A stretch of DNA of 64,000 nucleotides from a virus. Where the stretch lies: IMG/VR virus record IMGVR_UViG_3300032893_000001, positions 120,954 through 184,953 of that record; one strand, written 5' to 3'. The translations under genes were made by a program, and so were the position numbers. A model generated the notes under the pieces. That model worked only from the letters and a program-made list of their open reading frames with translations, did no database searches and was not told the origin of the DNA. Of this stretch, positions 1,764 to 57,656 are shown one piece after another. Numbering within the stretch: position 1 is the stretch's first letter; each line of letters starts with the position of its first letter.

Positions 1764-1792
1764 TCTTATCCCGTTGCCACGCAGATGCTTGC
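1764..1792 (-). promoter_or_regulatory. phage-specific promoter GCAA-N19-ATAAGA
   Basis: ttgc 1789-1792 and tcttat 1764-1769 on + strand, 19-nt spacer; recurs throughout window. Confidence 0.8.
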
Positions 1793-1795
1793 GTC

Positions 1796-1824
1796 GGGGC
1801 TAAGAAGAAGCGCGTTAGCGCTTC
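1796..1824 (-). terminator. hairpin terminator with TTAGCCC tail
   Basis: GAAGCGC-TAAC-GCGCTTC then TTCTTAGCCCC on minus strand. Confidence 0.65.
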
Positions 1825-1973
1825 TCCAGGTATTCGCCGATCTTGTCGAGCATCGCGAACCACGATGCCTCCATCCACATGAGGAAGGAGGGCGCGTACG
1901 TGTTTTTCTTGAAGAGCACCTTCCAGGTGTACCTCGCGTTCAGGCTCTTCTCGAAGTCGGGATCGAGCTTCAT
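1815..1973 (-). CDS. small hypothetical protein (52 aa)
   Basis: MKLDPDFEKSLNARYTWK..., ATGA overlap with upstream gene; below ORF-track cutoff. Confidence 0.6.
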   Translation of the reverse strand: MKLDPDFEKSLNARYTWKVLFKKNTYAPSFLMWMEASWFAMLDKIGEYLEKR

Positions 1974-2551
1974 CCGCTTGCTCCTTCTGCTGACTTCTTC
2001 GCGTCCCAGTCGGCAACTGCTTGGCGCATTGCTTCGATGTCACGCTCGAGGAAGCGAATGGACACCGGACCTGCCGGCATCTCGAGAACGACGTGCTCTG
2101 CGGTCAGATCTCCCTTGCCGCCGAGCCGCTTGAACTCCTGCATCGCGAGCTCTCGCCCCAGGTAGTAGTACGAGCGCTCCGCGAACGTCTTCGACTTGCG
2201 CGCGAGGATGTCGTAGCCGTGGATGAGCGCGACCTGGTGGTGTACGAGTGCGTCGGTCGTGGGTGAGGGCTCGACCTCTCTCGCGGTACTCTTGACGGGA
2301 GGTGCTTCTTCGACGAGATCGAGCTTGAGCACGAGACGCAGCTTCACCGTCCACTCGTGCGCGCAGTGCTCGCAGTACAGACCGTGCTCGAACACCTCGT
2401 TCGCCATCGGGTAGCTCAAGTAGTTCTCGCGGCTGAAGTCCTCCACGACGGTGCCGTCGCACTTCGGGCACTTGCCCTCGAGCGACACGCCCGGCAGGTA
2501 GAACCGCTTCACGTCGACCTCGAAGGTCTCTTCGTTGCTTACGATCTTCAT
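1970..2551 (-). CDS. zinc-ribbon hypothetical protein
   Basis: CPKC...CEHC pairs. Confidence 0.7.
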   Translation of the reverse strand: MKIVSNEETFEVDVKRFYLPGVSLEGKCPKCDGTVVEDFSRENYLSYPMANEVFEHGLYCEHCAHEWTVKLRLVLKLDLVEEAPPVKSTAREVEPSPTTDALVHHQVALIHGYDILARKSKTFAERSYYYLGRELAMQEFKRLGGKGDLTAEHVVLEMPAGPVSIRFLERDIEAMRQAVADWDAKKSAEGASG

Positions 2552-2555
2552 GGCC

Positions 2556-2735
2556 TCACTCCTTCAACAGCTTCTTGAGCTGCTCGATCGTGATGAAATC
2601 AGCTCGCGACCCGCTGCCCCAGCACGAGCCGCAGAGCATCCCCTTGCGGATGACTCCCTCGCCGTCGCACCGCGCGCACTGAAGGCGCACCCGAGCATGC
2701 CGCACGCGAGGCAGGTCGTCGTCACTCACCGCCAT
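2556..2735 (-). CDS. small DnaJ-type zinc-finger protein
   Basis: CARCDGEG and CGSCWGSG (CxxCxGxG x2); start after AAGGAGG. Confidence 0.7.
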   Translation of the reverse strand: MAVSDDDLPRVRHARVRLQCARCDGEGVIRKGMLCGSCWGSGSRADFITIEQLKKLLKE

Positions 2736-2779
2736 CGAAACCTCCTTCCTTTTTTGATTCTTCCATCTCTTTTTCCACC

Positions 2780-2860
2780 CCCGAAGTGATCTTCCTCCCT
2801 CTTCGGGTGCTCTTCGGGTACTTCGGGTAGCCACACCCGAAGACCACCCGAAGATACCCG
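2780..2860. repeat. array of CTTCGGGT direct and inverted repeats
   Basis: cttcgggt at 2801, 2812, 2821; acccgaag at 2835, 2846; partial copies at 2780 and 2856. Confidence 0.8.
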
Positions 2861-2862
2861 CA

Positions 2863-3192
2863 TCACCGCTTCGAACACGTCGCCTCGTGCATGTGCGCCT
2901 TGCCGGCGTGCACCATCCGCCCACACTCGGGGCACGGACCGCAGTCCGGGCACCGCCGCTGCCGTCTCCAGCCCTCTTGGGGAGCGTCCAGGGCGTTGCG
3001 GACGTCGGCGGTCGAAAAGCGCACCCTGGCGCCAAGGAAGGGACCCTGAGTGACCTCCACGATGGCGTTCGGAGCTCCGGTGACGGGGTTGGGCTCCTCG
3101 TGGACGAAGCGGTACCCGTCCGCCCAGGTTTTCAAGGGGGCGCTTCCCCCCGCCCACACGATCTGCACCTCCACCGGTGTCCCCGGCGTCAT
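2863..3192 (-). CDS. hypothetical protein with C-terminal Cys/His cluster
   Basis: MTPGTPVEVQIVW...CPDCGPCPEC. Confidence 0.65.
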   Translation of the reverse strand: MTPGTPVEVQIVWAGGSAPLKTWADGYRFVHEEPNPVTGAPNAIVEVTQGPFLGARVRFSTADVRNALDAPQEGWRRQRRCPDCGPCPECGRMVHAGKAHMHEATCSKR

Positions 3193-3722
3193 CCCGCCGC
3201 TCCTGTCATTCCCGTCAGCAGTGCCCCCAGCCCCTTCGTCGTCAGCTCGAACGTGTCGTCGGAGCACTTGACCAGGTACCCCACGTCCACCGCGGCGATC
3301 ACCACCTCGACGAACTCCTTCAGCAGGGGCATGTCCTTGGGCGGCTCCGCCAAGTTCAGCGTCGAGAGGAACAGCCCGCGCCACAACAGGTTGTCGAAGA
3401 GCACGCACCACATCCGCCGCGCCGTCTTCGTCGCCAGATGGAACGTCAGCGCCTCGGGGTTCGGGTAGTTCTTCCTCACCCGCTCTTCGCAGATGGCGCA
3501 GAGAGACATGTACCGATCTCCCTCCTGCACGATCGCGTGCACTTCCATCCCGCAGCGCAGAAACTCGTTGGACGTCGACTCTTCGAGGCCAGGGTACTCT
3601 CGAAGTTGAACCGCGTACGACTGGCACCCGAGCAGATCGGGCACGAGCCGATCGCCGATGCACCAGAACCCGTTCTTCTCTTTCACCAACAGTCGCCTGA
3701 AGTCTTTCGCCATGTTCGCCAT
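3189..3722 (-). CDS. hypothetical protein
   Basis: 177 aa, AAGGAGG RBS, downstream of promoter. Confidence 0.75.
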   Translation of the reverse strand: MANMAKDFRRLLVKEKNGFWCIGDRLVPDLLGCQSYAVQLREYPGLEESTSNEFLRCGMEVHAIVQEGDRYMSLCAICEERVRKNYPNPEALTFHLATKTARRMWCVLFDNLLWRGLFLSTLNLAEPPKDMPLLKEFVEVVIAAVDVGYLVKCSDDTFELTTKGLGALLTGMTGAAG

Positions 3723-3757
3723 GGATGCCTCCTTGCGCGGCAGATGCCGCTCAGAAT

Positions 3758-3786
3758 TCTTATCCCGGCTTCAGGCCCGCACTTGC
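3758..3786 (-). promoter_or_regulatory. promoter GCAA-N19-ATAAGA
   Basis: tcttat 3758-3763, ttgc 3783-3786; preceded by hairpin + TTTAGCGCCC. Confidence 0.8.
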
Positions 3787-3815
3787 TCTTCGGGCGCTAA
3801 AGAAAAGAGTGACGG

Positions 3816-4058
3816 TCAGTCGCCCTTTTCTTCCTTCTCGGTCCGCTTGCCGACCACGGTCTCTTGGGGATCGACGAAGGTGTCGACGGAAAGAGGTCGA
3901 TCGCAGTGCGGACATCGCGGCCTTCTCTTGAAGGCCAGGATGACCGTGTAGTTCTCCTTGTACTTCCCACCGACGATCAACAAGAGTGCGGTGAGGATGA
4001 CCATGCCACCGACGACGGCGCACATGAAAGCGACCAGCCCAGACCCAATCGAGCTCAC
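3816..4058 (-). CDS. membrane protein with CxxC
   Basis: N-terminal hydrophobic helix, CPHC. Confidence 0.65.
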   Translation of the reverse strand: MSSIGSGLVAFMCAVVGGMVILTALLLIVGGKYKENYTVILAFKRRPRCPHCDRPLSVDTFVDPQETVVGKRTEKEEKGD

Positions 4059-4381: not shown

Positions 4382-4412
4382 TGTTCACCTAGCCTTTCTC
4401 CGCCTTGGACGA

Positions 4413-5300: not shown

Positions 5301-5681
5301 TCAATCGCACTCGACATCGTCATCCTCCGGCTCGGCGTCTTTGACTTTCTTGTACGGGCGCATCGCCCTGAACACGAACGCGTCGTAGACCTCTGGCCCT
5401 TGCAGAGTCTGCTCGGTGATTTCGATCTCCTCGCTCGCGTTCTCGTACTGGTACTGGCGCCAAGCGTCGATCGCTTGCTCCCACCTGCGATTGGCGAGAT
5501 GGTCGAGGATCTGCTGCTTGACGGGCTCGTCGTGAATGTCGTCGATCCACGCGCGGATGATGGCGCACGCCTGAAGAACGGCGAGGTTCAGCGTGGTGAA
5601 GGCGAAGAAGTCATGCCCGTATTCGTGCACGTACGTCAGGATGAAGACCGACTCGTTGTCGTCCCGATTCTCTTTGTTCAT
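5301..5681 (-). CDS. hypothetical protein
   Basis: 126-aa acidic ORF. Confidence 0.7.
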   Translation of the reverse strand: MNKENRDDNESVFILTYVHEYGHDFFAFTTLNLAVLQACAIIRAWIDDIHDEPVKQQILDHLANRRWEQAIDAWRQYQYENASEEIEITEQTLQGPEVYDAFVFRAMRPYKKVKDAEPEDDDVECD

Positions 5682-5911
5682 GCTCGCACCCTCGCCTTCT
5701 TCTTGTTCAACCTGGCCTCTCGCTGCTGCGCGTAGAGGGCGTTTCGAATGGCGTTGGTCGCCATTGCGCCCAACGTGGTCACGTAGACATGCCTGCTCCG
5801 AAGCGGACGGATCTCGACCCTGTCGATGTCACGATAGATCGTGACGGTCCCCTCGACATCACCGCCGGCGCTGTCGAGCGGCGCCTTCACTCTGAATCTT
5901 GCAACACTCAT
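5678..5911 (-). CDS. hypothetical protein
   Basis: 77 aa, RBS, downstream of promoter 5928-5956. Confidence 0.7.
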   Translation of the reverse strand: MSVARFRVKAPLDSAGGDVEGTVTIYRDIDRVEIRPLRSRHVYVTTLGAMATNAIRNALYAQQREARLNKKKARVRA

Positions 5912-5927: not shown

Positions 5928-5956
5928 TCTTATCCCCTCTGGAGGTGCTCGCTTGC
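5928..5956 (-). promoter_or_regulatory. promoter GCAA-N19-ATAAGA
   Basis: tcttat 5928-5933, ttgc 5953-5956. Confidence 0.75.
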
Positions 5957-6349
5957 GTTCGGTTCAGGTCGCTGAAGAACACCGAGATCGAGGTTCACCC
6001 AGCCCTTGAAGACGTACTTCCATCCCGTGCCGTACAAGCCATCCGGCGCTTGCTTCGGCGGCCTCGTGAACGTGCAGTCCTTGCCCACCTTCAGGAAGAT
6101 CACGTGACCGCAGGTAGCGCTGTCGAGCGCCTCATTGCGGTACGCGGCCCAGTTGCCACCACGCTCCTTCATCCTCGCGAGTTGCTGCTCGTCGACAGGC
6201 ACGACCCTCATGTCGTCCTCGTGCACGATCAGCTCTCGATCGCGCACGCGGACCTTGTAGAAACATTCGCGGTCGTAGCTCAAGATCTCCCCTTCGGTCG
6301 CGTTGGGGTCGATCTCGACGAGCACGCCGGGTTGCATCGTTTTCTTCAT
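5930..6349 (-). CDS. hypothetical protein
   Basis: 139 aa, GGAGG RBS. Confidence 0.75.
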   Translation of the reverse strand: MKKTMQPGVLVEIDPNATEGEILSYDRECFYKVRVRDRELIVHEDDMRVVPVDEQQLARMKERGGNWAAYRNEALDSATCGHVIFLKVGKDCTFTRPPKQAPDGLYGTGWKYVFKGWVNLDLGVLQRPEPNASEHLQRG

Positions 6350-6368: not shown

Positions 6369-6430
6369 TCTTATCTCGGCAGAGGGGCTGTCGTTGCCAG
6401 GGCTAAGAAGAAGGCAACGCCTTCTTCTGA
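6369..6430 (-). promoter_or_regulatory. terminator (hairpin + TTAGCCC) abutting promoter GCAA-N19-ATAAGA
   Basis: tcttat 6369-6374, ttgc 6394-6397, gggctaa and aagaaggc/gccttctt hairpin 6400-6429. Confidence 0.8.
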
Positions 6431-7761: not shown

Positions 7762-8267
7762 TCGAGATCTTTCTTGAGCAGAGGAACGAGACGGACCATC
7801 GCTTCCTTCACGAAGCGCTCGACCATGTACGGGTGCTTCTCCTCGTACAGCGCGTGCGCCTCGTACTCGTCGATCTTCTCCTGCTTGCTTGCCCATTGAT
7901 GAAACGCCTCCACGGAGTCCTCGATGTCGTATTCGAGCTCGAGCAGCTCGGCTTCCTCTTCGACCTCGGCGATGGTGATCTCTCCGTTCTCCATCATCTC
8001 GTGGAGTCTCGTGTGAATCGCCTTCTTCGTAGCCTCGCCGTCGTACTCTCGTCCGGGTGAGAGCTTGTTGACGAAGTAGTCCCAGTGATTCTCGACGTCG
8101 AGTAGGAACTCGCGGAAGTCCTTCTTGCCGTGATGCGCCCAGAGATAAGCGTAGTTGCCGAAGTCGCTGATCGACGAGAAGTAGCCGTCCGAACCAAGCA
8201 CGAAGATTGCCCAACCCGAGCCCTTGATGCTGGGCAACGAGTACCGCCACAGTTTGACGTCAGCCAT
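7725..8267 (-). CDS. hypothetical protein
   Basis: 180 aa; SISDFGNYAYLW motif typical of phage accessory proteins. Confidence 0.75.
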   Translation of the reverse strand: MADVKLWRYSLPSIKGSGWAIFVLGSDGYFSSISDFGNYAYLWAHHGKKDFREFLLDVENHWDYFVNKLSPGREYDGEATKKAIHTRLHEMMENGEITIAEVEEEAELLELEYDIEDSVEAFHQWASKQEKIDEYEAHALYEEKHPYMVERFVKEAMVRLVPLLKKDLECSTSSTEKKGG

Positions 8268-8571
8268 CGTCGCCCTCCCTCGTCGTCGGCATGTTGACCT
8301 TCTTCATGTCCTCGATCGTGGCCGACATCGCGGCCCAGATCGCTCCCTGCACGAAACCGAGCCACCGCATCGCCTTCTCGATACGGTTCTCGTCGACGAG
8401 CTTCTTACCCTCTTCGCACATCCAGAGGGCGTGCTCGAGGATCTCCTCTTCGTCCTGCGCGGTCCTGTCGGCGGGACAGCGCTGCGGCACGAGTTTGTAG
8501 AAGTCCCCCGCGTCGTCGAGGATCATCTTGGTGCAGGCGTCGAACGCTTGTTTCACTTTCTTCGGTGTCAT
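8260..8571 (-). CDS. hypothetical protein
   Basis: HALWMC...EKAMRWLGFVQG motif; AAGGAGG RBS. Confidence 0.75.
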   Translation of the reverse strand: MTPKKVKQAFDACTKMILDDAGDFYKLVPQRCPADRTAQDEEEILEHALWMCEEGKKLVDENRIEKAMRWLGFVQGAIWAAMSATIEDMKKVNMPTTREGDDG

Positions 8572-8590: not shown

Positions 8591-8650
8591 TCTTATCCCA
8601 GGTCGTCGCGGATCGTTGCGGGGCTAAGAAGAAGGCTTGCGCCTTCTTCC
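8591..8650 (-). promoter_or_regulatory. terminator (GAAGAAGGC-GCAA-GCCTTCTTC + TTAGCCC) abutting promoter
   Basis: tcttat 8591-8596, ttgc 8616-8619, hairpin 8628-8649. Confidence 0.8.
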
Positions 8651-8655
8651 CCTCC

Positions 8656-9207
8656 TCACTCCTCGGCGAGGAGCTGGAGGAATTCTTGTCGATGCTCCTT
8701 CGGAACCTTCGACATGCTCTGCTTGAGGTCCATGAAGAGCCGGAAGGCCGTCTTGAACCCGAGGCGGGACGGAGCCTTCAAGCTGCTCGAGGAGTCCAAC
8801 TTGACGAGCTTCTTCGTCTCGCCGTCGAGCTCCTTGAAGACCTTCACCAAACGCGGCTGCACACGGACTGCTTGGGCGCCGTTGATGATACGGTTGTACG
8901 TCGAGCTCGAGATGCCGAAGAGCTTCTGCAACTGCGCCGCGGACGCTCCAGGCTCCGCGGCCATGGCGCGGAAGCGCGCGCACACGTCGTTGCTCGTGCC
9001 TGCTTCGACCTTGAACGAAATGCCGAGCTTCTCGAAGTGCGCCAGCGTCTTGTTCCAACGCTCCTCGTCGATCGTATCTCGGCTCTTGCAGTAGTACGTC
9101 GATGCGAAGCCGAGATCGACGGCGAGTTGCGTCCTGCTGATCTTTGCTTGCGAGCAAGCCTTGACCAACCAATCAGCCATCTGCTTTGTGAACGTAATCG
9201 TCTTCAT
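8656..9207 (-). CDS. helix-turn-helix DNA-binding protein (two XRE-like HTH)
   Basis: ISRTQLAVDLGF and SAAQLQKLFGISSSTYNRIING. Confidence 0.65.
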   Translation of the reverse strand: MKTITFTKQMADWLVKACSQAKISRTQLAVDLGFASTYYCKSRDTIDEERWNKTLAHFEKLGISFKVEAGTSNDVCARFRAMAAEPGASAAQLQKLFGISSSTYNRIINGAQAVRVQPRLVKVFKELDGETKKLVKLDSSSSLKAPSRLGFKTAFRLFMDLKQSMSKVPKEHRQEFLQLLAEE

Positions 9208-10013
9208 GGAGAAACCTCCTCGTAGTTCTTATCCCCTCGAGCAAGCCGTCTTTGCATGGACAGCAGCGTAAGCTCCTCGAGTAGATCGCTCTCCGTCAGG
9301 CAGCCAACGGCCAGGCAACGTGACGGAAGGCACGTCTTTCCCGTCGTGCCGACGATGATCGACATCGAGCTGTTCGAGTGCTTCTGTTGCGCAGTCGCAC
9401 CGATCGCGCGGTACGCCAAGAAGCGCAGTGCCTGAAGAGGGTGCACCGCGCGGTTCTGCACTTGGGTGAACCCAGCCATCGCGCGGCTGATCGGCTTCTC
9501 ATGCCCCTTGATCGAGCTCAGACCGAGACCGCTCTGAATCTTCTCCATGCGACAGAGCAGGCTTCGATCCTTTTCTCGTGATGCGAAGAGCGTGATCGAG
9601 AAGGCGTAGGGAGGAACAGCGGTGTTGAGAGCACCCACGGCCTTCTCGACAGTCTTCGTGGACAGCGTGTTGCAGAAGTCCAGATTGAGCGTGCCGATTG
9701 GCCTCGACGCCCGCTTCAGGTTTCGCACGACGTCAACGACGTCGGCGTTTCGAACGTCCACCTTCGGGAACTGCTGTCGCAGACGCTCGCAGTCCTCCGT
9801 TGAGTACTCCGCGGCAACGATGTGTTGCGACGGAACACCGAGAGACAACAGCAACTCGATGTCTCCGCCTGCTCCACCGAGCACGACGTGCGTCTCCTTC
9901 AAGAATCGACGAAGGCCGACCGCCTGTAGAAATGTCGCGTACGTCAGAAGCCGCGCGACGCGCTTCTCTGGTCGATCTCCGGGGAAGACCCCCTCGGGAT
10001 AGGTTTTGGGCAT
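9204..10013 (-). CDS. putative SAM-dependent methyltransferase-fold protein
   Basis: VVLGGAGGD, IVAAE, NADV, LNLDFC match order of class I MTase motifs; start at 10013 after GGAGG and promoter 10032-10060. Confidence 0.5.
   Translation of the reverse strand: MPKTYPEGVFPGDRPEKRVARLLTYATFLQAVGLRRFLKETHVVLGGAGGDIELLLSLGVPSQHIVAAEYSTEDCERLRQQFPKVDVRNADVVDVVRNLKRASRPIGTLNLDFCNTLSTKTVEKAVGALNTAVPPYAFSITLFASREKDRSLLCRMEKIQSGLGLSSIKGHEKPISRAMAGFTQVQNRAVHPLQALRFLAYRAIGATAQQKHSNSSMSIIVGTTGKTCLPSRCLAVGCLTESDLLEELTLLSMQRRLARGDKNYEEVSP
9227..9255 (-). promoter_or_regulatory. promoter GCAA-N19-ATAAGA
   Basis: tcttat 9227-9232, ttgc 9252-9255, just upstream of HTH gene. Confidence 0.75.
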
Positions 10014-10042
10014 GTACGCCTCCTTCAAGGGTCTTATCCCTC

Positions 10043-10306
10043 TCAGCCGAGGCGTTTTGACAACGTCCTTCCGCACTTCGCACAGAAGATGCGTCCCTTG
10101 TACCTCGCTCGAACTACGTGCGGACAGGCAAGAAGCTTGTCCTCGAGGTCTTTCTTACTTCGCGCGCGCATCGTGACGTAGCTCTCGTACGTCCACGTGG
10201 CCCCGCGCAGAATGACGAAAGGAGAAACGACCTCGACAACCACTCCCCATCGAGCTTCACCCTGCGGCGTTACGAACACGATCGCAGCGTCTCTCTTCAG
10301 ATTCAC
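10043..10306 (-). CDS. hypothetical protein
   Basis: 87 aa, CPH...CAKCG. Confidence 0.6.
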   Translation of the reverse strand: MNLKRDAAIVFVTPQGEARWGVVVEVVSPFVILRGATWTYESYVTMRARSKKDLEDKLLACPHVVRARYKGRIFCAKCGRTLSKRLG

Positions 10307-10318
10307 TTGTCTCCTGAA

Positions 10319-10355
10319 GGCTAAGAAGAAGGGCGCCTCGAGGGCGCCCTGTCTT
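10319..10355 (-). terminator. hairpin terminator with TTAGCC tail
   Basis: AGGGCGCC-CTCGA-GGCGCCCT then TCTTCTTAGCC. Confidence 0.75.
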
Positions 10356-10684
10356 CAGTGATCGTGGTGGTGCCCCTCGTGCTTGTGCGTCTTCTCGCGC
10401 GACATGGCGCGCACCGCGTCTTTGAAGGCAGCGCGCGTGATGCGCCCCTGACGGTAGCGCCGCCAGAGATTCTTCTCCTTCTTGTTGTCGAAGAGCGGCA
10501 TCATGCGCATCTGCTGGAACATCGCCTTCGCCCAGCCCTCGGGAGCCCTTCGCCCCACGTTGGCCGCCTGGATCATTCGGCCCCGAGCACGCGACTTGGT
10601 GCCGTACCGCTCGATTCGGCGCTGCTGCGAGCGCAAGAAGCGCTCCGCGAGAATGGCGCGATAGTCGTCGACGAGCTTACCCAT
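10355..10684 (-). CDS. basic hypothetical protein
   Basis: MGKLVDDY..., AAGGAGGAG RBS, His-rich C-terminus. Confidence 0.7.
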   Translation of the reverse strand: MGKLVDDYRAILAERFLRSQQRRIERYGTKSRARGRMIQAANVGRRAPEGWAKAMFQQMRMMPLFDNKKEKNLWRRYRQGRITRAAFKDAVRAMSREKTHKHEGHHHDH

Positions 10685-21044: not shown

Positions 21045-21060
21045 GCCCGTACTGTACCTC

Positions 21061-21108
21061 GGGGCTAAGAAAGAGAGCTAGAGAAGTGGGCGCCCCTGCG
21101 GGCGCCCC
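21061..21108 (-). terminator. hairpin terminator with TTAGCCC tail
   Basis: GGGCGCCC-GCAG-GGGCGCCC then pyrimidine tract ending TTAGCCCC. Confidence 0.7.
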
Positions 21109-21162
21109 GTTGTCATTTGATGCCACAAGGGACGAATGAGAAGGACTGCCATCCTCCATCAT
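21065..21162 (-). ncRNA. candidate small RNA (promoter-terminator unit without a convincing ORF)
   Basis: about 95 nt between promoter 21163-21191 and terminator. Confidence 0.4.
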
Positions 21163-21191
21163 TCTTATCCCTGTGGCACCAAACGATTTGC
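21163..21191 (-). promoter_or_regulatory. promoter GCAA-N19-ATAAGA
   Basis: tcttat 21163-21168, ttgc 21188-21191. Confidence 0.75.
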
Positions 21192-21736
21192 TAGTTGACG
21201 CGGGGCTGCACGATGTTTCGAAGAACTGCCGCCGACTGGCGGAAGAGCTTCGAGAGCTCGCACTCCTTGCGGTCGTGATCGGCGGCCTCGTGCGCCTCCG
21301 CTCCGCGCACCAGATCGTCCGCGATCTGAACGCAGTCGACCGCCGTGAGTCGCTTCGACACGGCTGTCAGCAACTTCGTGAGCTCCTCTTCGAGCTTCTC
21401 GTCCGGAACGGCGTTGCCGCACGCCACGATCATTCCGCGAACGCGCTTCGTCTCCGCGTGTTCGACAGGGCTCGCAGGAGGAGCAACACCGACCGACGCC
21501 GGCGTCGTTGGGATCGGTGCGATACCTAGCGCTCGAAGAAAGTTCAGCGGTGAAGACGGTTGCTCTTGTTGAAGCTCGCCGACCACCACCACACCTCGCT
21601 TTCCGCTCTCCATCATGCGGATGACGTAGCCGTCTTCCGAGAGCTGGTTGAGGGCCTCTTCGAACTTCTTCGTGTAGGTCGTCAGCTTCGTCCCTAGAGG
21701 GACTCCGATGACGCGGAATCGTTTCTTCTCAGCCAT
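21191..21736 (-). CDS. hypothetical protein
   Basis: 181 aa, AAGGAGG RBS. Confidence 0.7.
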   Translation of the reverse strand: MAEKKRFRVIGVPLGTKLTTYTKKFEEALNQLSEDGYVIRMMESGKRGVVVVGELQQEQPSSPLNFLRALGIAPIPTTPASVGVAPPASPVEHAETKRVRGMIVACGNAVPDEKLEEELTKLLTAVSKRLTAVDCVQIADDLVRGAEAHEAADHDRKECELSKLFRQSAAVLRNIVQPRVN

Positions 21737-22181
21737 CGCTGCCTCCTTCGAAATCCTCGACGTAGTGTACCCGTTGTTCCGGCGTCAGATCGGATTCGAA
21801 GACGCCGTAGACATCTTCGACTGACGCCTTCACTTGACCTGTAGCGGGATCGGTTCGGAACTTCCAGCCCCAGAGCTCGCCCTCTTCTCCATAGTACTGG
21901 AGAAAGCTTCCGTCGCGCACGGACGGTGCGAGAAGCGAAAAGAACGCGGCGTAGTGATCCTCGTCCTGCATCTTGCTGTCGGACGGGTACACCCCGCAGA
22001 TGTTGCCCATCTCGTCGTCTGCGTACTCGAAGCCCCAAAGGCGGAGCTCCTCCTCGAGAGACATCGAGGGGCGGTCATCGTCTTTCTCTTTGCGCCATTT
22101 CTGAAAGCGCTCCAGCGCCTCGGCGTGCTTGTCGACCGGAAGAAAGAACTTCAGGTCGGACGCGTAGTAGTGCGAACCCAT
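21729..22181 (-). CDS. hypothetical protein
   Basis: MGSHYYASD..., AAGGAGG RBS; variant promoter GCAA-N19-AAAAGA at 22216-22244. Confidence 0.75.
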   Translation of the reverse strand: MGSHYYASDLKFFLPVDKHAEALERFQKWRKEKDDDRPSMSLEEELRLWGFEYADDEMGNICGVYPSDSKMQDEDHYAAFFSLLAPSVRDGSFLQYYGEEGELWGWKFRTDPATGQVKASVEDVYGVFESDLTPEQRVHYVEDFEGGSDG

Positions 22182-22243
22182 GGATGCCTCCTTTAGGAGC
22201 AAGCGCTCCCGAGGCTCTTTTTCCCTGTCGTACGCACAAGTTG

Positions 22244-22681
22244 CTACTCGAGCGAGACGATATCGCCGGCGTCGAGAAGCGCTGCCAATCCACGCTGCCC
22301 GTTCGTATCAACCTTGATGGACTCGAGATAGTCGGACTCCGTGCGCGGAGGAGGCAGCCGCCGGCGCGTGGGAGGGCGCCCAAGCGTCTGAATGTCTCGT
22401 GCGGTGATCGTGCGCAGGCGCGCACGCACTTCTTCCAGATCGAGCCCCAGAGTTTCGCAGATGCTGATGAAGGAGAACGCCTCGTAGCCGTCGGTTTTAC
22501 GCTGCTGCCAGTGCGGATGTCCGGGAGCTTCGACGAAGAGCCACGTGTACGCCTCGTGCGCGAGCTTGCGGTTCTCGAGTCGTCGACTGTTGCGGTAGAG
22601 AACCCAGTCGTAAGCCGCCCGCCGGACGATCTCCAAAAGGAGTACCCGGCAGTTCACTCCTTCCAGTACGCGATCGTTCAT
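22244..22681 (-). CDS. hypothetical protein
   Basis: A..W.F...FSFISICETLGLD..VR motif. Confidence 0.7.
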   Translation of the reverse strand: MNDRVLEGVNCRVLLLEIVRRAAYDWVLYRNSRRLENRKLAHEAYTWLFVEAPGHPHWQQRKTDGYEAFSFISICETLGLDLEEVRARLRTITARDIQTLGRPPTRRRLPPPRTESDYLESIKVDTNGQRGLAALLDAGDIVSLE

Positions 22682-25115: not shown

Positions 25116-25328
25116 TCACCCTGCGAGAAAGTTGTCGATCTCGGTGACGGCAAGAGCCGTCACGGCTTGCTGCTGTGCATCGATCAGTTGGCCAAGCCCA
25201 CGCCCTTGTAGCATGCGCGTGAGTTGTGTGACGCGGTCGTTCAACTCCTTCTGTCGCTGCTGCGACCACTGCTGCGTGAGCTGTACGAGTTGGTCGAGGC
25301 GTTGATCTCGCTCTGCTTGCGAAGCCAT
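25116..25328 (-). CDS. hypothetical protein (possibly leaderless)
   Basis: 70 aa; TAGACT 7 nt before ATG. Confidence 0.65.
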   Translation of the reverse strand: MASQAERDQRLDQLVQLTQQWSQQRQKELNDRVTQLTRMLQGRGLGQLIDAQQQAVTALAVTEIDNFLAG

Positions 25329-25343
25329 CGCGAGAAGTCTACC

Positions 25344-26704: not shown

Positions 26705-26722
26705 AAGAACCTCCTTCGGGCC

Positions 26723-26751
26723 TCTTATCCCGTCCCGACTTCCGTTGTTGC
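26723..26751 (-). promoter_or_regulatory. promoter GCAA-N19-ATAAGA upstream of sigma gene
   Basis: tcttat 26723-26728, ttgc 26748-26751. Confidence 0.8.
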
Positions 26752-27761: not shown

Positions 27762-27763
27762 GG

Positions 27764-28564: not shown

Positions 28565-28881
28565 TTCTTGTGGGCCAGAAGCTGCGCGGCGACCGGCGCC
28601 GCAAGGGTACCAAGTCCCCCGAGCTCCAAGCCCGCATGCGCCATCTCCCACTTGTCGGGGTGCTCTTTGCGCGCCTGGTGCTGCAACGTGTCGATCGGCG
28701 GAAGGGCCAAGATGCCGAGGCCGCCGAGATCGTAGGCGTGGCCGTGCTCGGCCAAGTGACGACCGATGGCACTTTCGGGACCGAGAGCTCGGCCGAGCGC
28801 GCCGGCAGCGCTCAGGCCCTCTCCCGCCTGCTTGATCTTCATGAGCTCGTCGACGAATGACTTGTAGACGACGGCGTTCAT
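28561..28881 (-). CDS. putative internal virion protein
   Basis: starts MNAVVYKSFVDELMKIKQAG. Confidence 0.65.
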   Translation of the reverse strand: MNAVVYKSFVDELMKIKQAGEGLSAAGALGRALGPESAIGRHLAEHGHAYDLGGLGILALPPIDTLQHQARKEHPDKWEMAHAGLELGGLGTLAAPVAAQLLAHKK

Positions 28882-29546: not shown

Positions 29547-29554
29547 GATGGACC

Positions 29555-39163: not shown

Positions 39164-39184
39164 GTCCGAAGGCTACCACGAACC

Positions 39185-39232
39185 ACAAAAAAGGGCGCGA
39201 AGGCGGCATAAGAAGAACAAGGAGGCACTACC
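39185..39232 (+). promoter_or_regulatory. promoter (ACAA-N19-ATAAGA) and RBS
   Basis: ATAAGA 39208-39213, AAGGAGG; divergent from tape measure. Confidence 0.7.
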
Positions 39233-39418
39233 ATGGACAAGAACTGCATCAAGAAATACCTGTATCCCGAGGACACCAACGCCGGCCCGCTCAGCGGCTT
39301 CGAAGACTGGCGCTTGTTCTGCCTGCTGGTACAGGAACAAGAAGAAGCGAAGCGCCGCAGGGAGACCCAGACGCGGCTGCTCGCAATGGTGGGCGACGGA
39401 CGGGGGTTCCTGCGCTGA
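39233..39418 (+). CDS. small hypothetical protein
   Basis: 61 aa in promoter-gene-terminator cassette. Confidence 0.7.
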   Translation: MDKNCIKKYLYPEDTNAGPLSGFEDWRLFCLLVQEQEEAKRRRETQTRLLAMVGDGRGFLR

Positions 39419-39424
39419 TCGAGT

Positions 39425-39552
39425 AGAAGAAGGGCACCCCCTTCTTCTTAGCCCAGAGGGCGCAATTTCCAGGGTGAATCGGGCATAAGAACTCTGAGAG
39501 TTCAGCTCTCTTTAGCCCGCGCGCACATTCCGGAGCCGTTGGCGGCATAAGA
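39425..39552 (+). promoter_or_regulatory. terminator-promoter-terminator-promoter tandem (empty cassette)
   Basis: hairpin+TTAGCCC 39425-39454; GCAA 39462/ATAAGA 39485; GAGAG-TTCAG-CTCTC+TTTAGCCC 39496-39518; ATAAGA 39547. Confidence 0.75.
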
Positions 39553-39572: not shown

Positions 39573-40202
39573 ATGCGCATCTACATTTCGATTCTCATCG
39601 CGAGCCTGTTCCTGGTCGCGTGCGGTACGGACACCACGACGAACAACAAGCAGGGCAGCGGCGATCCCGCCTGCTCTTCGAGCGCGCCGCTCTGCACCGG
39701 CGATCCTGGCCCGCAAGGACCCACGGGTCCTCAAGGCCCTGCGGGTCCTGCCGGCCCGCAAGGACCAAAGGGCGATCCTGGCACCATCGGCGCCACCGGT
39801 CCCCAAGGCCCTCAAGGAGATCCTGGATTGCAAGGTCCTGCGGGACCCGCGGGTCCCCAGGGAGCTCAAGGTGTCCAAGGCGTTCAAGGCCCTGCGGGTC
39901 CCCAAGGCCCCGCCGGCACGTCGATCTCCAAGTCGAAGCTCTACGTCGTGAACTGGCAGAACAACGCCAACACGAACTACCAGCAAGTCGATAAGGGTGA
40001 CATCTACTGCAACAACAACTCGGACGTCCTCATCTCTGGCGGCGTCTACTACAACATGAGCACACCCAACCTCGGCGAGGTCGTCTGCATCCCGATCAAC
40101 CCGACGGATACGACCAAGCAGGCAGGCATGGAGTGCCAGGTGCGCTCCAACACGTCTCCGTACCTCGTTTGGCACATGTGGGCGCTCTGCTCGACACCAT
40201 GA
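39573..40202 (+). CDS. collagen-like lipoprotein
   Basis: signal peptide with lipobox LVAC, then about 24 Gly-X-Y triplets (GPQGPAGPQ). Confidence 0.85.
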
Positions 40203-41224: not shown

Positions 41225-41272
41225 CTGACGATTCCAGAGGAAAGGAGGGAATAAGAACAACAAGGAGGCACT

Positions 41273-41614
41273 ATGATCTTCATGTTCCTGGGGGTCGCCG
41301 CTGGCGTGAAGCTGGCGTGCACAGCCCTCGATCTTGTTCACACGTCCGCTGACGCTCGGCGCGCCAGTAAGACCGGGGGCAATCTCAAAGCCCTCGGTCC
41401 CGTGATTCCGTACAGACCGCCGGTCCGGCTCTACTCCACTGTGGAGGAGGGTATGTGCGGCGAAGACGAAGGCTCCTTCCCGGAGCACGAACGAGCGCAG
41501 GCTCGACTCCGCGCAGAGGCACGCTTTGCAAGCGTCGCCAAGGACTGGCCTCGTTGCAGCCACTGCGGCGAGCCCGTCATGAACCCGAAGAAGTACTTCG
41601 AGAGGGTCGCATGA
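41273..41614 (+). CDS. hypothetical protein
   Basis: ATAAGA 41251 + AAGGAGG; hydrophobic N-terminus, CSHC. Confidence 0.65.
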   Translation: MIFMFLGVAAGVKLACTALDLVHTSADARRASKTGGNLKALGPVIPYRPPVRLYSTVEEGMCGEDEGSFPEHERAQARLRAEARFASVAKDWPRCSHCGEPVMNPKKYFERVA

Positions 41615-41751
41615 CCCTCGAGAAGGATGTCCTACGCGTCCCGTTCGGGGAGGTCGCGAAGGTCAAAGAGCCCAGCCCCCGGAAAAACAACAACAAGAAA
41701 CGGTATAAGAAGATTGATGGGAGACCTACCCATTCAACCAAGGAGGCAACC

Positions 41752-42006: not shown

Positions 42007-42014
42007 CAGTACCG

Positions 42015-42083
42015 GAAGAAGGAACCCCACGGGGTTCCTTCTTTTTAGCTCCGTGCAAAATACAGGTATTCTCCGAGATAAGA
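42015..42083 (+). promoter_or_regulatory. terminator (GAAGGAACCCC/GGGGTTCCTTC + TTTTTAGCTCC) abutting promoter
   Basis: GCAA 42055-42058, ATAAGA 42078-42083. Confidence 0.8.
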
Positions 42084-42230
42084 ATCGTGGAGGAAGAGAC
42101 TGCTCTTACGTGTGGTGGACCAACCGAGGGCTTGCCCTCTGCATGGACTGCCTCCTTACCACGTAGGAGTAGGGACGCCTCTGAAAAGAACCCTGGCCGG
42201 AAGTCCAAGCCGGGGTTCTTTTCTCTACCC
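42084..42230 (+). ncRNA. candidate structured small RNA carrying an anti-Shine-Dalgarno sequence
   Basis: own promoter and terminator; 13-bp stem 42100-42112/42160-42172; TGCCTCCTTAC 42149-42159. Confidence 0.55.
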
Positions 42231-42237: not shown

Positions 42238-42266
42238 GCAAGAACGCTACGTAGTAGGGGATAAGA
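42238..42266 (+). promoter_or_regulatory. promoter GCAA-N19-ATAAGA
   Basis: GCAA 42238-42241, ATAAGA 42261-42266. Confidence 0.8.
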
Positions 42267-42287: not shown

Positions 42288-42479
42288 ATGGGACAATGCG
42301 AACACTGCGGCGGGGACCTAGCTGACGACCAACTCCACGTGCTGAGCGAGTGCTTCACGCACTTGTACGATCGCATCGACAAACTCGAAGAGGAAAACCG
42401 CGGGTTGAAGCAAGCCGTGGAGGCGTACAAGCGCCAACTCAAGAAGATCACCGCGACGGCCCCTCCTTCCGTCGTGTAG
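42288..42479 (+). CDS. small Cys/His + coiled-coil protein
   Basis: CEHCG...H...C then leucine-zipper-like segment. Confidence 0.7.
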   Translation: MGQCEHCGGDLADDQLHVLSECFTHLYDRIDKLEEENRGLKQAVEAYKRQLKKITATAPPSVV

Positions 42480-42549
42480 CGTTGCCCGTCTTTGACGGGT
42501 GACGGCGAGAGACAGCCGGGCTTCCCCCCACTCGGCTGTCTCTCGTTTT

Positions 42550-42843
42550 TTAGCCCCGTGGCACGCGCATATGCTGAACGCCGTTCGGTGTCTCCTGTGC
42601 GGGTGCAGAAGCCGCCTCCTTCTTCTTGCGAATGGGGGAGCGCTTCTCCATCGGCTTCGTCAAGTTGGTCACCGCGGTCGTTACGATCTCCTCGCAGTTC
42701 GCGCAGAGGTCGTCGTAGGACGCGACGGAGTGCCCCCGTACAGTGATCGTGAGCGCGGGGTAGTCGCTCTCAGGAGCCTCCTCGACGTACTCCGTGCGAT
42801 TGCAGCGGCCACACTCGATTGCAACAACGGACTTTCGTGCCAT
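42550..42843 (-). CDS. zinc-binding hypothetical protein
   Basis: MARKSVVAIECGRC...DLCANC. Confidence 0.65.
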   Translation of the reverse strand: MARKSVVAIECGRCNRTEYVEEAPESDYPALTITVRGHSVASYDDLCANCEEIVTTAVTNLTKPMEKRSPIRKKKEAASAPAQETPNGVQHMRVPRG

Positions 42844-42926
42844 CTTCTTCTCCCGGTAGCTTTCCTTCTTGTACCCCTTCAATCGGACCCTGAAAAGAGG
42901 AATAAGAAGAACAAGGAGGCACTACC

Positions 42927-43247
42927 ATGGACACTCAAATCGACAAGGTCTGCAAAGAGAAGCTCACAAGGAACCTGCTCAAGGTCGCGAAGTACAACCA
43001 CGCAGCGTCTTCCTTCTTGCACCAGCAGCGCTACGAGCAGGCGATGCTGCACTTCTCTTGGACGCTGGACGTCATCGATAACGGCGTCGACATCTGCAAG
43101 GCAGGACTGACTAACGGCGTCGACAAGGAGAAGTACGCAGATCACCTCAAGTTGCTGATGGCCCTGCGCAACTCGATCGAGACGACGATGACGTTCATCT
43201 CGGTCGCGATGCACGCCGCCGGCGGCGCGGACCAGCCCGTCAACTAG
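42927..43247 (+). CDS. hypothetical protein
   Basis: promoter TCAA-N19-ATAAGA, AAGGAGG RBS, UUCG terminator + TTTTTTAGCCCC at 43255-43288. Confidence 0.75.
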   Translation: MDTQIDKVCKEKLTRNLLKVAKYNHAASSFLHQQRYEQAMLHFSWTLDVIDNGVDICKAGLTNGVDKEKYADHLKLLMALRNSIETTMTFISVAMHAAGGADQPVN

Positions 43248-43459
43248 GCGGGAGAAGAGGCACCTTCGGGTGCCTCTTTTTTAGCCCCGTCATGGGTCTT
43301 CCACCAAAGGTAGGTCTTGATCGCCGCTCGCTCGAGGTTGTCGAGAGGGCCATCCTTCAGGTGCTCCTGAAACCATGCGTTGAAGGCATCGAGATCTGCA
43401 TCGACTTCTTTCTCGAGTGCCTTGCCATCGTGCAGGTTGTCTGCTTGAACGGAAATCAT
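43244..43459 (-). CDS. hypothetical protein
   Basis: MISVQADNL..., GGAGG RBS. Confidence 0.6.
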   Translation of the reverse strand: MISVQADNLHDGKALEKEVDADLDAFNAWFQEHLKDGPLDNLERAAIKTYLWWKTHDGAKKEAPEGASSPA

Positions 43460-55531: not shown

Positions 55532-55535
55532 GGGA

Positions 55536-55724
55536 TCAGCCCTTCTTGCCGGGCTTCTTGCTCGCGCCGAAGTGACGCTCGGCCGCCTTGACCGCCGCCG
55601 CCTTGTCCGCCGCGCTCATCTTCTGGACGCGACCGAGCGCGCGCTTGGCGCCGGTGAGGCTGACGTACGCGCCGCTCTTCAGCTTCTTCTTGTACACGTC
55701 CAGGGTGACCATCTCGTAGCTCAT
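55536..55724 (-). CDS. small basic (K/A-rich) protein
   Basis: VTLDVYKKKLKSGAYVSLTGAKRALGR. Confidence 0.7.
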   Translation of the reverse strand: MSYEMVTLDVYKKKLKSGAYVSLTGAKRALGRVQKMSAADKAAAVKAAERHFGASKKPGKKG

Positions 55725-55734
55725 GTTCTTTCCT

Positions 55735-56076
55735 TCACTTTCTGCGATAGCCGTCGTCGTTGCGACGACGTCCTCGGTCCCCACGATCACCACGATCGTG
55801 AGGCCGTGACTCGTTGCGCGGCGGAGGAGGAAGCTTTCGAACCTCCTCTTCAGCCATCTCCGCACCCGCGCGAATGGCGGAGACCAGCTCTTCGATCTTT
55901 CTCGTAGGGATGCCGAAGAAGCGCTCCCCGATGTGGAGCTGAAGATCGATGAACTCCCGCTTGGAACCGTCCTCGAAGGTTGTCGTACGGTGCACGACTT
56001 CGACGGTGCCCGCCCAACGTCGATCTCCTTCCGCGAACGGTAGCGACTTGAGGACAATCCTTTCGTGAGAGTTCAT
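55735..56076 (-). CDS. hypothetical protein (possible PC4/PUR-like nucleic-acid-binding fold)
   Basis: beta strands + FIDLQL...IPTRKIEELVSAI helix, RGDR tail; AGGAG RBS. Confidence 0.55.
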   Translation of the reverse strand: MNSHERIVLKSLPFAEGDRRWAGTVEVVHRTTTFEDGSKREFIDLQLHIGERFFGIPTRKIEELVSAIRAGAEMAEEEVRKLPPPPRNESRPHDRGDRGDRGRRRNDDGYRRK

Positions 56077-56242
56077 GGACGCGAAAACTCCTATCTGCTG
56101 ACAGCAGCCATTGCCGCGGCCTGACATGCCGCGGTCTTCTTCTTGTCCCCGGTTCAGGCGCTCTTCCGGATGTAAAGCATCTTCTCGTTCTTGTCTACCG
56201 TCTTGATGCTCTTCTTTTGAAGAAGGTCGCACCCTGACGCCG

Positions 56243-56971
56243 TTACGTCTGTTCGAGCTCCTGGATGTCCGCGAGGTACTCCTGAGCGACCACCGCGCTG
56301 AAGTCGGTGATGAGCTTACGCTTGTCGTCCGGAATCACGGGGAGCGCGTTGTAGTCGACGTTGAGGTGTCCGAACTCCTTGAAGAGCGCGACCTCGTTGT
56401 CGATGTACCCTTGCAAAGGGGCGGTGAAGTACCCCTGCGCCTTGAGGGCCTTGACGAAGTTGACGGGATCGCCGGAGAGCACCGCGCTCCAGCATTGATT
56501 GAATCGCTTGCGCAGCATCCCGAGATAGTCCGTCATACCCAGTACGAGGCTCGACCATTCGTCGATGGTGCCATCGGCGTTGAGCACCTGGAACGCGCGG
56601 AAGCGGCAAGCAGGGTGCTCCGGGTAGAACCAGACAGTCGACGTGCCATCCGAGTGCGTCTCGGTGATGCGCGCTTCGGCGCCGGGCTTGGACGCTGCGA
56701 CGTACGCAGCGGCCACCGCGTTCGAGAAGACTTCCCAGCACGCGAAGTAGCAGTAGTCCCTTCCGTCGCCGTCGGTGCTCTTGGAGTTGCCGAAGTTGTA
56801 CGTGTGGATGTACCGCCATCGTCCTGTCTCGAGGGCGGACTGCGCCATCAGCACGAGGAGCTGCTCTTTCGTGGCAGGAAGCGTGAAGAGGTTGACCCAG
56901 CTCTGCGCCAGTCCTTGAAGAAACTGAAGGGGCGTCACCGGGGTCAGTCGATCGGAAACCTTGATGCTCAT
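56243..56971 (-). CDS. endolysin, glucosaminidase (GH73/FlgJ-like)
   Basis: AQSALETG, NFGN.K, FRAF, GYFTA...Y motifs. Confidence 0.8.
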   Translation of the reverse strand: MSIKVSDRLTPVTPLQFLQGLAQSWVNLFTLPATKEQLLVLMAQSALETGRWRYIHTYNFGNSKSTDGDGRDYCYFACWEVFSNAVAAAYVAASKPGAEARITETHSDGTSTVWFYPEHPACRFRAFQVLNADGTIDEWSSLVLGMTDYLGMLRKRFNQCWSAVLSGDPVNFVKALKAQGYFTAPLQGYIDNEVALFKEFGHLNVDYNALPVIPDDKRKLITDFSAVVAQEYLADIQELEQT

Positions 56972-56973
56972 GG

Positions 56974-57192
56974 CTACTTCTCCGAGAAGAGGTGAACGCA
57001 CTGGACCACGACCAGCGCGATGATTTGAAAGACGAGCAGAACGAGCAGCACGTGGCGCGTGCTCGAGCTCTCTGGCGCTACGAAGATCGCAGGAACGGTA
57101 CCGCCGATTCCGATACCGAATCCGTAGAAAGTGCCCAGGAAAAGTCCTCGGGCAGTTCCATCGCGGTGCGCGTGTCGAGCGTCATGGCGCAT
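56974..57192 (-). CDS. two-TM membrane protein, holin candidate
   Basis: two hydrophobic segments, immediately upstream of endolysin, GGGAGG RBS. Confidence 0.5.
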   Translation of the reverse strand: MRHDARHAHRDGTARGLFLGTFYGFGIGIGGTVPAIFVAPESSSTRHVLLVLLVFQIIALVVVQCVHLFSEK

Positions 57193-57565
57193 GCAGAAGA
57201 GCCTCCCACTCAGACGGATCGGCTGGAGAGAAGAGGGTGCGCAGAGGGCCTGAGAGGTAAGAAGGAAGAGGCTTGGGAACCTTGAGCTCTCGCACGTTCC
57301 TCGCGTCGTACCAAAGCTCGTAGCGACCAGATGGAAAGCTCTCCTCCACGCGCAGGATGGGGGACGACCCAAGAATCCGGCCGTCCATGACCAACCAAAC
57401 GACGTCGTCTTGCGCGGGCATCAGGTCGAGGACGTCGAGTTCCTGCACGGGAAGCCAGACTTCTTCCTCCATCCGCCATCGGTAGAAGTAGAACCAGCTC
57501 TTCATGCCCCGATGGTTGATGGGATCGGGGTCGGACCCCCGGATGTTGTAGACCCAGTGCCGCAT
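57182..57565 (-). CDS. hypothetical protein
   Basis: MRHWVYNIRG..., GGAGG RBS. Confidence 0.65.
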   Translation of the reverse strand: MRHWVYNIRGSDPDPINHRGMKSWFYFYRWRMEEEVWLPVQELDVLDLMPAQDDVVWLVMDGRILGSSPILRVEESFPSGRYELWYDARNVRELKVPKPLPSYLSGPLRTLFSPADPSEWEALLHAP

Positions 57566-57628
57566 GTGCTCCTCCACTGTAGCAATATCTTCGCGTTTCT
57601 TGTGCCAGCAGTCGAGGCGAACTTGCGC

Positions 57629-57656
57629 GCAAGAACAAGGCACACCTGGAATAAGA
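57629..57656 (+). promoter_or_regulatory. promoter GCAA-N18-ATAAGA
   Basis: GCAA 57629-57632, ATAAGA 57651-57656, then AAGGAGG and ATG 57692. Confidence 0.65.

Follow-up and report, generated by a model that had tools for sequence, protein, structure and literature searches.

A probable phage-specific promoter class heading early, accessory and replication units and the gene for a phage-encoded sigma factor

Here, we describe a recurrent two-box DNA element in a 64-kb window of viral DNA, namely the last 64 kb (120954–184953) of the 184,953-bp IMG/VR record IMGVR_UViG_3300032893_000001, a genome rated complete with a GC content of ~61%. Going by sequence and comparative evidence, sites of the form GCAA-N16-GGnATAAG are very probably promoters of a phage-specific class, which we would class as a novel variant among the sigma-70-type promoters and among phage transcription strategies. 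On the question of what reads them, we lean towards a sigma factor and an RNA polymerase (RNAP) that are both encoded by the phage, perhaps reaching the cell by injection of a ready holoenzyme; the sigma gene would then be subject to positive feedback. Coordinates below refer to the window unless they are given as genome positions.

The promoter motif

In its most stringent form, GCAA-N19-ATAAGA, the element occurs 11 times in the window (eight copies on the minus strand and three on the plus strand), as against a mean of 0.01 in dinucleotide-preserving shuffles, and the rest of the 184,953-bp genome has none. These sites begin at 1764, 3758, 5928, 6369, 8591, 9227, 21163, 26723, 39462, 42055 and 42238, exactly as listed in a first-pass annotation made from the letters of the window, and all 11 are co-directed with genes. 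The seven near matches in that list are likewise real, with six showing a degenerate or shifted −35 box and the one at 22216 combining an intact GCAA with a −10 box of AAAAGA. The list was incomplete in that it had overlooked two further sites (41228–41256, plus, and 57598–57626, minus); its claim that the sites are co-oriented with the local genes holds throughout, every site pointing along its downstream gene. The ATAAGA hexamer itself is present 21 times in 185 kb, with 19 copies in the window and one at 1.7 kb ahead of it. All but one of the 19 window copies are promoter-like, the copy at 4683 being apparently a chance occurrence, and genome-wide all but ~3 lie in a promoter-like context. 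We also considered an avoidance of ATAAG outside promoters and dropped the idea, since its count (34 copies versus a median of 52 for 5-mers of the same composition, with a higher-order Markov expectation of 20) is ordinary among same-composition 5-mers.

Alignment of the sites yields the consensus gCAA-N16-GG(g)ATAAGAA with an unconserved spacer sequence, and in the general form GCAA-N16-GGnATAAG(A) the word GGnATAAG marks 22 sites genome-wide. The genome-wide motif scan, which the first-pass annotation had named as a check, bears the class out: a weight matrix built on these 22 sites recovers 29 sites at ≥12 bits, compared to 0–4 in five Markov-simulated genomes, with the additional sites being intergenic variants carrying ACAAGA, AGAAGA or AAAAGA. 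For 12 of these 22 sites, the distance from ATAAG to the start codon is 17–22 nucleotides (nt), with AAGGAGG lying between, in agreement with the earlier observation that the promoters adjoin Shine–Dalgarno sequences. The boxes are set 18 nt apart, from GCAA to (G/n)ATAAG, with N18–N20 variants, a layout in keeping with the 16–19-nt spacer of sigma-70-type promoters, and the spacer is free in sequence both within the genome and between orthologous sites. On the sigma-70 scale, this amounts to a G at −14, an A at −11, a G replacing the T at −7 and a spacer of 18 nt. The sigma-70 −10 hexamer TAnnnT is accordingly not matched: A(−11) is kept, but of 32 sites 23 carry a G at −7 and a single one a T. 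In two promoter-rich stretches, promoters of the sigma-70 consensus itself were found 0 and 1 times versus 1.6 and 1.1 expected.

Conservation of the promoter in relatives

The exact site at 26723–26751 (minus) stands 19 nt before the GTG start of the gene for a sigma-70-family factor of 248 amino acids (aa) with regions 3 and 4 and a probable region 2 (25958–26704, minus). The comparison covers four relatives (here L035, L036, L038 and L039), further IMG/VR relatives, Salmonella phage Arash (OQ632216) and Vibrio phages D69, D181 and D148. These named phages, with genomes of ~180–187 kb and homologous RNAP and sigma genes, are the nearest named relatives; 20 kb of the window as a query against phage records gave no near-identical match, and while a single sigma sequence as query recovered no related loci, an alignment-based scan did so. 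At sigma identities of 83%, 68% and 54%, both the sigma-proximal site and the site at 21163 keep their boxes even as the spacers have diverged, with the former retaining GCAA (ACAG in L038) and G(G/A)GATAAGA; L035, L038 and L039 all have this sigma-proximal site. A complete GCAA-N16-GGnATAAG site stands at the head of a 3–4-gene operon ending in the sigma gene in L036 and eight IMG/VR relatives, and in three more the site is immediately upstream of the gene. In Arash, the region's sole plus-strand intergenic copy lies 4 nt ahead of gp9–gp10, of which gp10 is the sigma. Since the copy thus recurs at the sigma gene or its operon across relatives, the link between promoter and sigma gene appears to be an old and conserved design. 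The positive autoregulation of the sigma gene that was posited earlier fits this conservation across the family, including Arash.

Unbiased k-mer enrichment of intergenic regions points to the same core in the cultured relatives. The top intergenic word of Arash is GGTATAAG and its motif TGGTATAAG, with GGTATAA being intergenic in 31 of its 41 copies; the Arash consensus, tCCA-N-AA ... TGGTATAAGtAAagTGTAaa, places a CA at the same upstream distance as the GCAA of the phage studied here. In D69, the top word is GTTATAAG and the motif TGTTATAAG, which is intergenic in 17 of 19 copies. All three phages have G(−14) and an ATAAG spanning −11 to −7 in common; position −12 is taken by T in Arash but chiefly by G in our phage. 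The base after (G)nATAA is G not only in the above 23 of 32 sites but also in 31 of 41 in Arash and 19 of 28 in D69, with T in just 1–2. As this G(−7) replaces a near-universal T in phages of three unrelated hosts, a phage-borne reader is suggested. D69 shows a further intergenic motif, CTAAAATATAG / GAACTAAAT-N15-CTAATATAG.

The phage sigma factor

The sigma factor matches the Pfam Sigma70_r3 model at 35.5 bits (cut-off 25.3), with region 3 found in nearly all of 80 homologues, and the Sigma70_r4 model at 26.8 bits (cut-off 24.1) over residues 195–243. The Sigma70_r2 model gives no match to it. A profile of 30 homologues nevertheless aligns with regions 2.2–2.4 of SigA from position 68, with the tryptophan (WW) dyad of region 2.3 missing. 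Since this dyad is absent and region 2 goes undetected by Pfam, the −10 chemistry of this sigma is not readable from homology. Compared to solved structures, the same profile retrieves SigA best (9.5e-16), with FliA (6pmi) at 6.5e-8. The nominal top NCBIfam match, the FliA/WhiG family TIGR02479, scores 37.1 bits against a cut-off of 189.6, with SigB/F/G nearly equal. Membership of the FliA family is excluded by this shortfall and by the closeness to SigA among structures. Hence, of the earlier assignment to a group-3-like sigma, the part that survives is the size; together with the presence of region 3 and the absence of region 1.1 it is shared with group-3 sigmas, and on these profile comparisons the protein is a sigma-70-family factor of group-3-like size and not a FliA. 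A resemblance of the downstream box to that of FliA had also been noted. It is weak: the FliA/sigma-28 promoters (TAAA-N15-GCCGATAA) are likewise of two boxes with a GATAA core in the downstream one, but their −35 box is unrelated to GCAA.

The sigma gene sits inside a virion-type block that is syntenic with Arash. The sigmas of the two phages are 31% identical and their RNAPs 32% over 1500 residues, and they also share capsid, portal, terminase and DNA polymerase. At its N-terminus, IDELLEEKKKTAA, the sigma carries the signature (F/I)xDEL-x-K-x-A, which recurs in its upstream neighbors and two head-module proteins (window 25958–29956, minus; genome 12650–13003 and 40688–41665). DEL-x-K-x-A is found within the first 40 residues of 7 proteins versus 0.18 expected, and the signature is kept in the metagenomic homologues of the sigma; it might serve for targeting to the capsid or as a signal for a protease. 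Arash and D69 additionally differ from our phage in carrying a second, longer sigma of the gp196 type (Arash OQ632216 120656–121693; D69 133190–133969), which is not among the listed Arash virion proteins (PMC10585845). No second sigma was detected in the present genome with TIGR02937, Sigma70_r2 or tblastn with Arash gp196.

The phage RNA polymerase and its predicted complex with sigma

Beyond the window, the phage encodes a fused beta–beta′ RNAP of 2128 aa as a single open reading frame (ORF) (genome 27207–33593, minus). Rpb2 domains are followed in it by Rpb1 domains, with matches to Rpb2_6 (1e-60), Rpb2_3, Rpb1_1, Rpb1_2 (6e-30) and Rpb1_5; alpha and omega subunits were not detected in the genome. 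Arash encodes this enzyme by two separate genes, D69 gives matches in several pieces, and D181 and D148 have homing-endonuclease insertions. The first-pass annotation had taken for granted that the sigma acts on the host core RNAP; this assumption is undercut by the phage's own fused beta–beta′ and by the presence of sigma, beta and beta′ alike among the virion proteins of Arash.

A complex model of sigma with residues 1010–1420 of the beta′ part scored 0.68, compared to 0.34 for the best control. Of 80 solved complexes 58 attained that mark, as did 2 of 110 mismatched pairs. At least 43% of contacts were common to the runs, and the predicted local distance difference test score (pLDDT) of the partner was at least 69. 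The predicted contacts join beta′ 1206–1246 to sigma 35–78 and correspond to the clamp-helix/region-2 interface. As this is the textbook interface, the pass may reflect likeness to solved holoenzymes. What the prediction shows is that sigma and the phage beta′ both retain this interface, as distinct from actual binding between them, and it is compatible with a host core too.

Which sigma and which core read the promoters

With extended −10 sigma-70 promoters (TGnTATAAT), the sites share G(−14), A(−11), TAA at −10 to −8, the 18-nt spacer and a sigma with region 3, but they differ in having G at −7 nearly always, no T at −12, and GCAA instead of TTGACA at −35. This bears on the proposal that the host holoenzyme reads the motif as an early promoter, with the phage sigma being an early product that directs another class, such as the GGTAnnnT boxes described below. 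Such a scheme would match the classical placement of phage sigma genes under host-read early promoters, the resemblance of the Arash motif TGGTATAAG to the extended −10 box, the nearness of the sigma profile to SigA, and the second motif class ahead of the RNAP gene and some virion genes. However, the G in place of a near-universal T(−7) in all three sampled phages disfavors a housekeeping sigma, −12 is mostly G in this phage, and recurrence of the same core in phages of Salmonella, Vibrio and a high-GC host speaks for a reader that travels with the phage. Moreover, a sigma packed into virions, as in Arash, should act on the first promoters used. We thus regard reading by the host holoenzyme as improbable, and the phage sigma as the probable reader on comparative sequence grounds.

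The candidate second class, (T/C)GnGGTAnnnT, precedes several virion genes as well as the RNAP gene and stands 6–7 nt before the ATG in four instances. On the minus strand of the window, GGTAnnnT boxes are seen 6–7 nt before the ATG at 21051–21058 (1035-aa gene), 25336–25343 (70-aa gene, 25116–25328) and ~39169–39180 (1206-aa gene); others beyond it are at genome 33611, 25793 and 99335, and the box of the RNAP gene lies 17 nt upstream. It looks like a candidate housekeeping-type (host-like) class of virion-gene promoters, some of them leaderless. Across the genome GGTAnnnT shows no enrichment, with 88 copies versus 138 for the reversed control. If real, the class would suggest an N4-like division of labor.

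With respect to the core, phage transcription is usually sorted in two: a phage sigma on the host core, or a phage polymerase of its own that works without sigma. The former has its paradigms in SPO1 gp28 and gp33/34 and T4 gp55, which, as is posited here, mark out phage-specific promoters for the genes of one temporal class. Redirection of the host RNAP by the phage sigma in the manner of SPO1 gp28 or T4 gp55, with beta–beta′ using another factor or promoter class, draws on what is to our knowledge the sole experimentally established mode of phage sigmas. A 2021 survey of jumbo phages also found sigma-encoding and RNAP-encoding phages to be separate groups (PMC7824862). Further, the sigma appears to retain a canonical core-binding region 2, as per the profile and the complex model, and the genome comes without a detected alpha or omega subunit. 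Nevertheless, SPO1 and T4 lack a phage polymerase and depend on the host holoenzyme for the first transcription of their sigma genes, whereas the present phage has a complete catalytic core and its sigma gene carries a promoter of the sigma's own class. A sigma solely behind its own promoter cannot self-start, and we found no sigma-70-like promoter nearby; in Arash, the virion contains the sigma along with both beta and beta′ (PMC10585845). We therefore deem the host core an unlikely partner and mildly prefer the phage core as the partner of the sigma at these promoters.

The latter half of the dichotomy raises the alternative that beta–beta′ recognizes the motif without a sigma-70-type factor, either alone or with an unrelated subunit, as do the non-virion RNAPs of phiKZ and AR9. 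In favor of it, the phage multisubunit RNAPs characterized so far all work without sigma (PMC7598289, PMC7824862). Against it stand the −35/−10 geometry with its 18-nt spacer, G(−14) and A(−11), which is the sigma-70 layout, and the presence of an encoded sigma that has a well-conserved region 3, a promoter before its own gene and an Arash homologue packaged with the polymerase. Accordingly, this alternative strikes us as most improbable. There is a likeness to the RNAPs of N4 (virion) and phiKZ/AR9 (virion and non-virion) in that a phage polymerase, packaged in the case of Arash, could read early genes independently of the host, with the multisubunit types deriving from beta/beta′. However, the N4 virion RNAP is a single-subunit T7-type enzyme using hairpin promoters, and the RNAPs of phiKZ and AR9 are split into 4–5 polypeptides with no sigma (PMC7824862), in contrast to the one fused, much more bacterial-like chain with a sigma-70-family factor seen here. 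Searches of the open-access literature turned up no account of a sigma-dependent RNAP encoded by a phage, nor of the promoters of this clade.

Taken together, we lean towards reading by the phage sigma and the phage polymerase. Of the earlier claim that the sites form the regulon of the phage sigma, the link to the sigma is indirectly but reasonably supported, since phages with this sigma on three unrelated hosts all have the same ATAAG core with G(−7) as their leading intergenic motif; its FliA and host-core components are not supported. In our reading, sigma and the single-chain beta–beta′ may be packaged in the capsid and injected as a ready holoenzyme. On entry, this would fire the early, accessory and replication units plus the sigma gene, whose promoter would then amplify the program by positive feedback. 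Transcripts would start ~5–7 nt past ATAAG, at the AAGGAGG ribosome-binding site, and most units end in hairpin–TTAGCCC terminators. A packaged holoenzyme is invoked because some sigma must be present before its gene can be read from a promoter of the sigma's own class, and injection because virions of Arash contain all three homologous proteins in abundance: mass spectrometry detected gp10 (sigma), gp206 (beta) and gp216 (beta′), with beta being the most abundant (PMC10585845). That study names the proteins and describes no promoters (PMC10585845). By analogy with Arash, virion delivery of the holoenzyme is conceivable, albeit somewhat short of an even prospect. The full scenario, in which the packaged holoenzyme of sigma and single-chain RNAP starts infection at extended −10 promoters with G(−7) and re-makes its own sigma, is offered with the same reserve.

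Several observations weigh against this proposal. Vibrio phage D69 has no motif copy at its sigma gene. The sigma lacks the WW dyad of region 2.3 and its region 2 escapes Pfam. Packaging in virions is known for Arash only, whose sigma is but 31% identical, and neither the Arash nor the D69 sigma has the N-terminal DEL-K-A extension. The predicted sigma/beta′ interface is universal, so that a bacterial beta′ would probably be predicted to bind as well. Finally, the phage sigma could in principle read the GGTAnnnT class instead.

If true, the proposal would describe the first sigma-dependent virion RNAP, shared by a widespread clade of ~185–200-kb phages that spans soil metagenomes as well as phages of Salmonella and Vibrio. 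Sigma and RNAP are both found in this clade, along with a conserved promoter consensus with G(−7). It would thus offer a compact, two-polypeptide holoenzyme of bacterial type with defined promoters and terminators that is testable in the cultured Arash and D69. Such a system would be useful for asking how a sigma reads the −10 box and how minimal a multisubunit RNAP can be, and is potentially an orthogonal expression system. The sites also provide an operon map for annotating a large group of dark soil phages.

Promoters, terminators and the units they serve

In the window, the promoters chiefly serve small ORFs without a family match, alongside genes for helix-turn-helix (HTH), collagen-repeat, coiled-coil and NT5C-like nucleotidase proteins. 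On the minus strand, exact promoters at 1764–1792 (GGGATAAGA), 3758–3786, 5928–5956, 6369–6397 (GAGATAAGA), 8591–8619 and 9227–9255 precede, respectively, genes at 1458–1733 (91 aa, no Pfam match), 3189–3722 (177 aa), 5678–5911 (77 aa), 5930–6349 (139 aa), 8260–8571 (103 aa) and 8656–9207 (183 aa, a weak HTH match). They are joined by a near match with TCAA as −35 box and GGGATAAGA at 10032–10060 ahead of the gene at 9204–10013 (269 aa), and by two weak variants: GCAA-N19-AAAAGA at 22216–22244 (15.9 bits; gene 21729–22181) and a divergent one, GCAA ... GGCACAAGA, at 57598–57626 (16.9 bits; gene 57182–57565).

On the plus strand, the near match at 39185–39213 (ACAA, GGCATAAGA) heads a 61-aa gene at 39233–39418. 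It is followed by a tandem pair, the exact site at 39462–39490 (GGCATAAGA) and the near match at 39524–39552 (CACA, GGCATAAGA), with a short hairpin and TTTAGCCC between them, upstream of the collagen-repeat gene at 39573–40202. The overlooked site at 41228–41256 (ACGA, GGAATAAGA, 19.6 bits) precedes an ORF at 41273–41614, and the near match at 41682–41710 (GAAA, GGTATAAGA) an ATG at 41752 behind AAGGAGG. The exact site at 42238–42266 serves a 63-aa gene (42288–42479), the near match at 42879–42907 (TCAA, GGAATAAGA) a gene at 42927–43247, and that at 57628–57656 (GCAA at N18, GGAATAAGA) a gene at 57692–58141 and then the NT5C nucleotidase-like gene. The product of 39573–40202 (plus) is a collagen triple-helix repeat protein (Pfam, 4e-15) amid small early-type genes.

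Outside the window, GGAATAAGG and GGTATAAGG sites head a helicase operon and a DnaB–primase–PolA operon. From the units that the sites head, the class covers early, accessory and replication genes and not virion genes. The first-pass annotation had restricted it to accessory as opposed to structural genes, and was right as to the accessory or early genes, the sigma and the lack of virion genes, but the reach of the class extends past the window to the replication operons.

Many promoters lie directly behind an element in which a GC-rich hairpin leads into a T-rich stretch and then into the conserved tail TTAGCCC(C), with a tail-to-GCAA distance that varies from 1 to 7 nt. Because such elements also close operons elsewhere in the genome, we interpret them as terminators and not as parts of the promoter. 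One such element, a hairpin followed by TTCTTC and TTAGCCCC, is found at 1796–1827 (minus) just upstream of the 1764 promoter. Others of the same type are at ~3793–3833, 6399–6428, 8620–8651, 10317–10356 and 21061–21107 on the minus strand, at 39425–39454, 42014–42051, 42510–42557 and 43251–43288 on the plus strand, and beyond the window at genome 38633, 63134, 95095 and 120742. Intrinsic terminators do not usually carry a fixed sequence behind the T-tract, and the TTAGCCC(C) tail may have a signaling role, either towards the phage polymerase or in the processing of RNA.

The expectation that each site serves a gene fails at two exact promoters, 21163–21191 (minus) and 42055–42083 (plus), which are met by terminators before any gene. 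The former heads a short terminated unit ahead of the 1035-aa gene: after ~100 nt comes the hairpin–TTAGCCCC terminator (~21061–21107), and the gene has its own GGTACAGT box 6 nt upstream of the ATG. As the terminator intervenes, 21163 appears to make a short RNA or leader and not the transcript of the 1035-aa gene. Its boxes and layout are kept in L035, L038 and L039. The unit (21050–21162) opens with a hairpin pairing Shine–Dalgarno-like and anti-Shine–Dalgarno sequences, GGAGGAU...GUCCUUC; the folding of this leader is no better than that of shuffles (z = −1.4). The 42055 unit consists of ~140 nt with no ORF linked to a ribosome-binding site (42084–42223), followed by a hairpin/T-tract ahead of the 42238 promoter. 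Judging by this arrangement, both promoters are predicted to drive short RNAs or leaders rather than genes.

These units also help judge whether the motif is a promoter at all. Its fixed short distance to the ribosome-binding site could instead betoken an RNA-level signal in 5′ leaders, such as one for processing or a translation enhancer, or else the site of a DNA-binding regulator. However, the element has two boxes with a spacer fixed in length and free in sequence, stands directly behind terminators, heads the ORF-less units at 21163 and 42055 and, in an Rfam scan of the whole window, coincides with no RNA family, no match having been found. We consider a non-promoter role to be remote.

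Further features of the genome

The tetranucleotide TTAA has 0 copies in the 184,953 bp, compared to ~9 expected from trinucleotide frequencies, and 462 and 887 copies, respectively, in Arash and D69; this may represent restriction-site avoidance. The record is labeled as linear without end repeats. Its terminal 160 nt are nonetheless near-identical (1–160 versus 184794–184953, that is, 63841–64000 of the window, with 159 of 160 positions matching), which indicates a closed, complete assembly.

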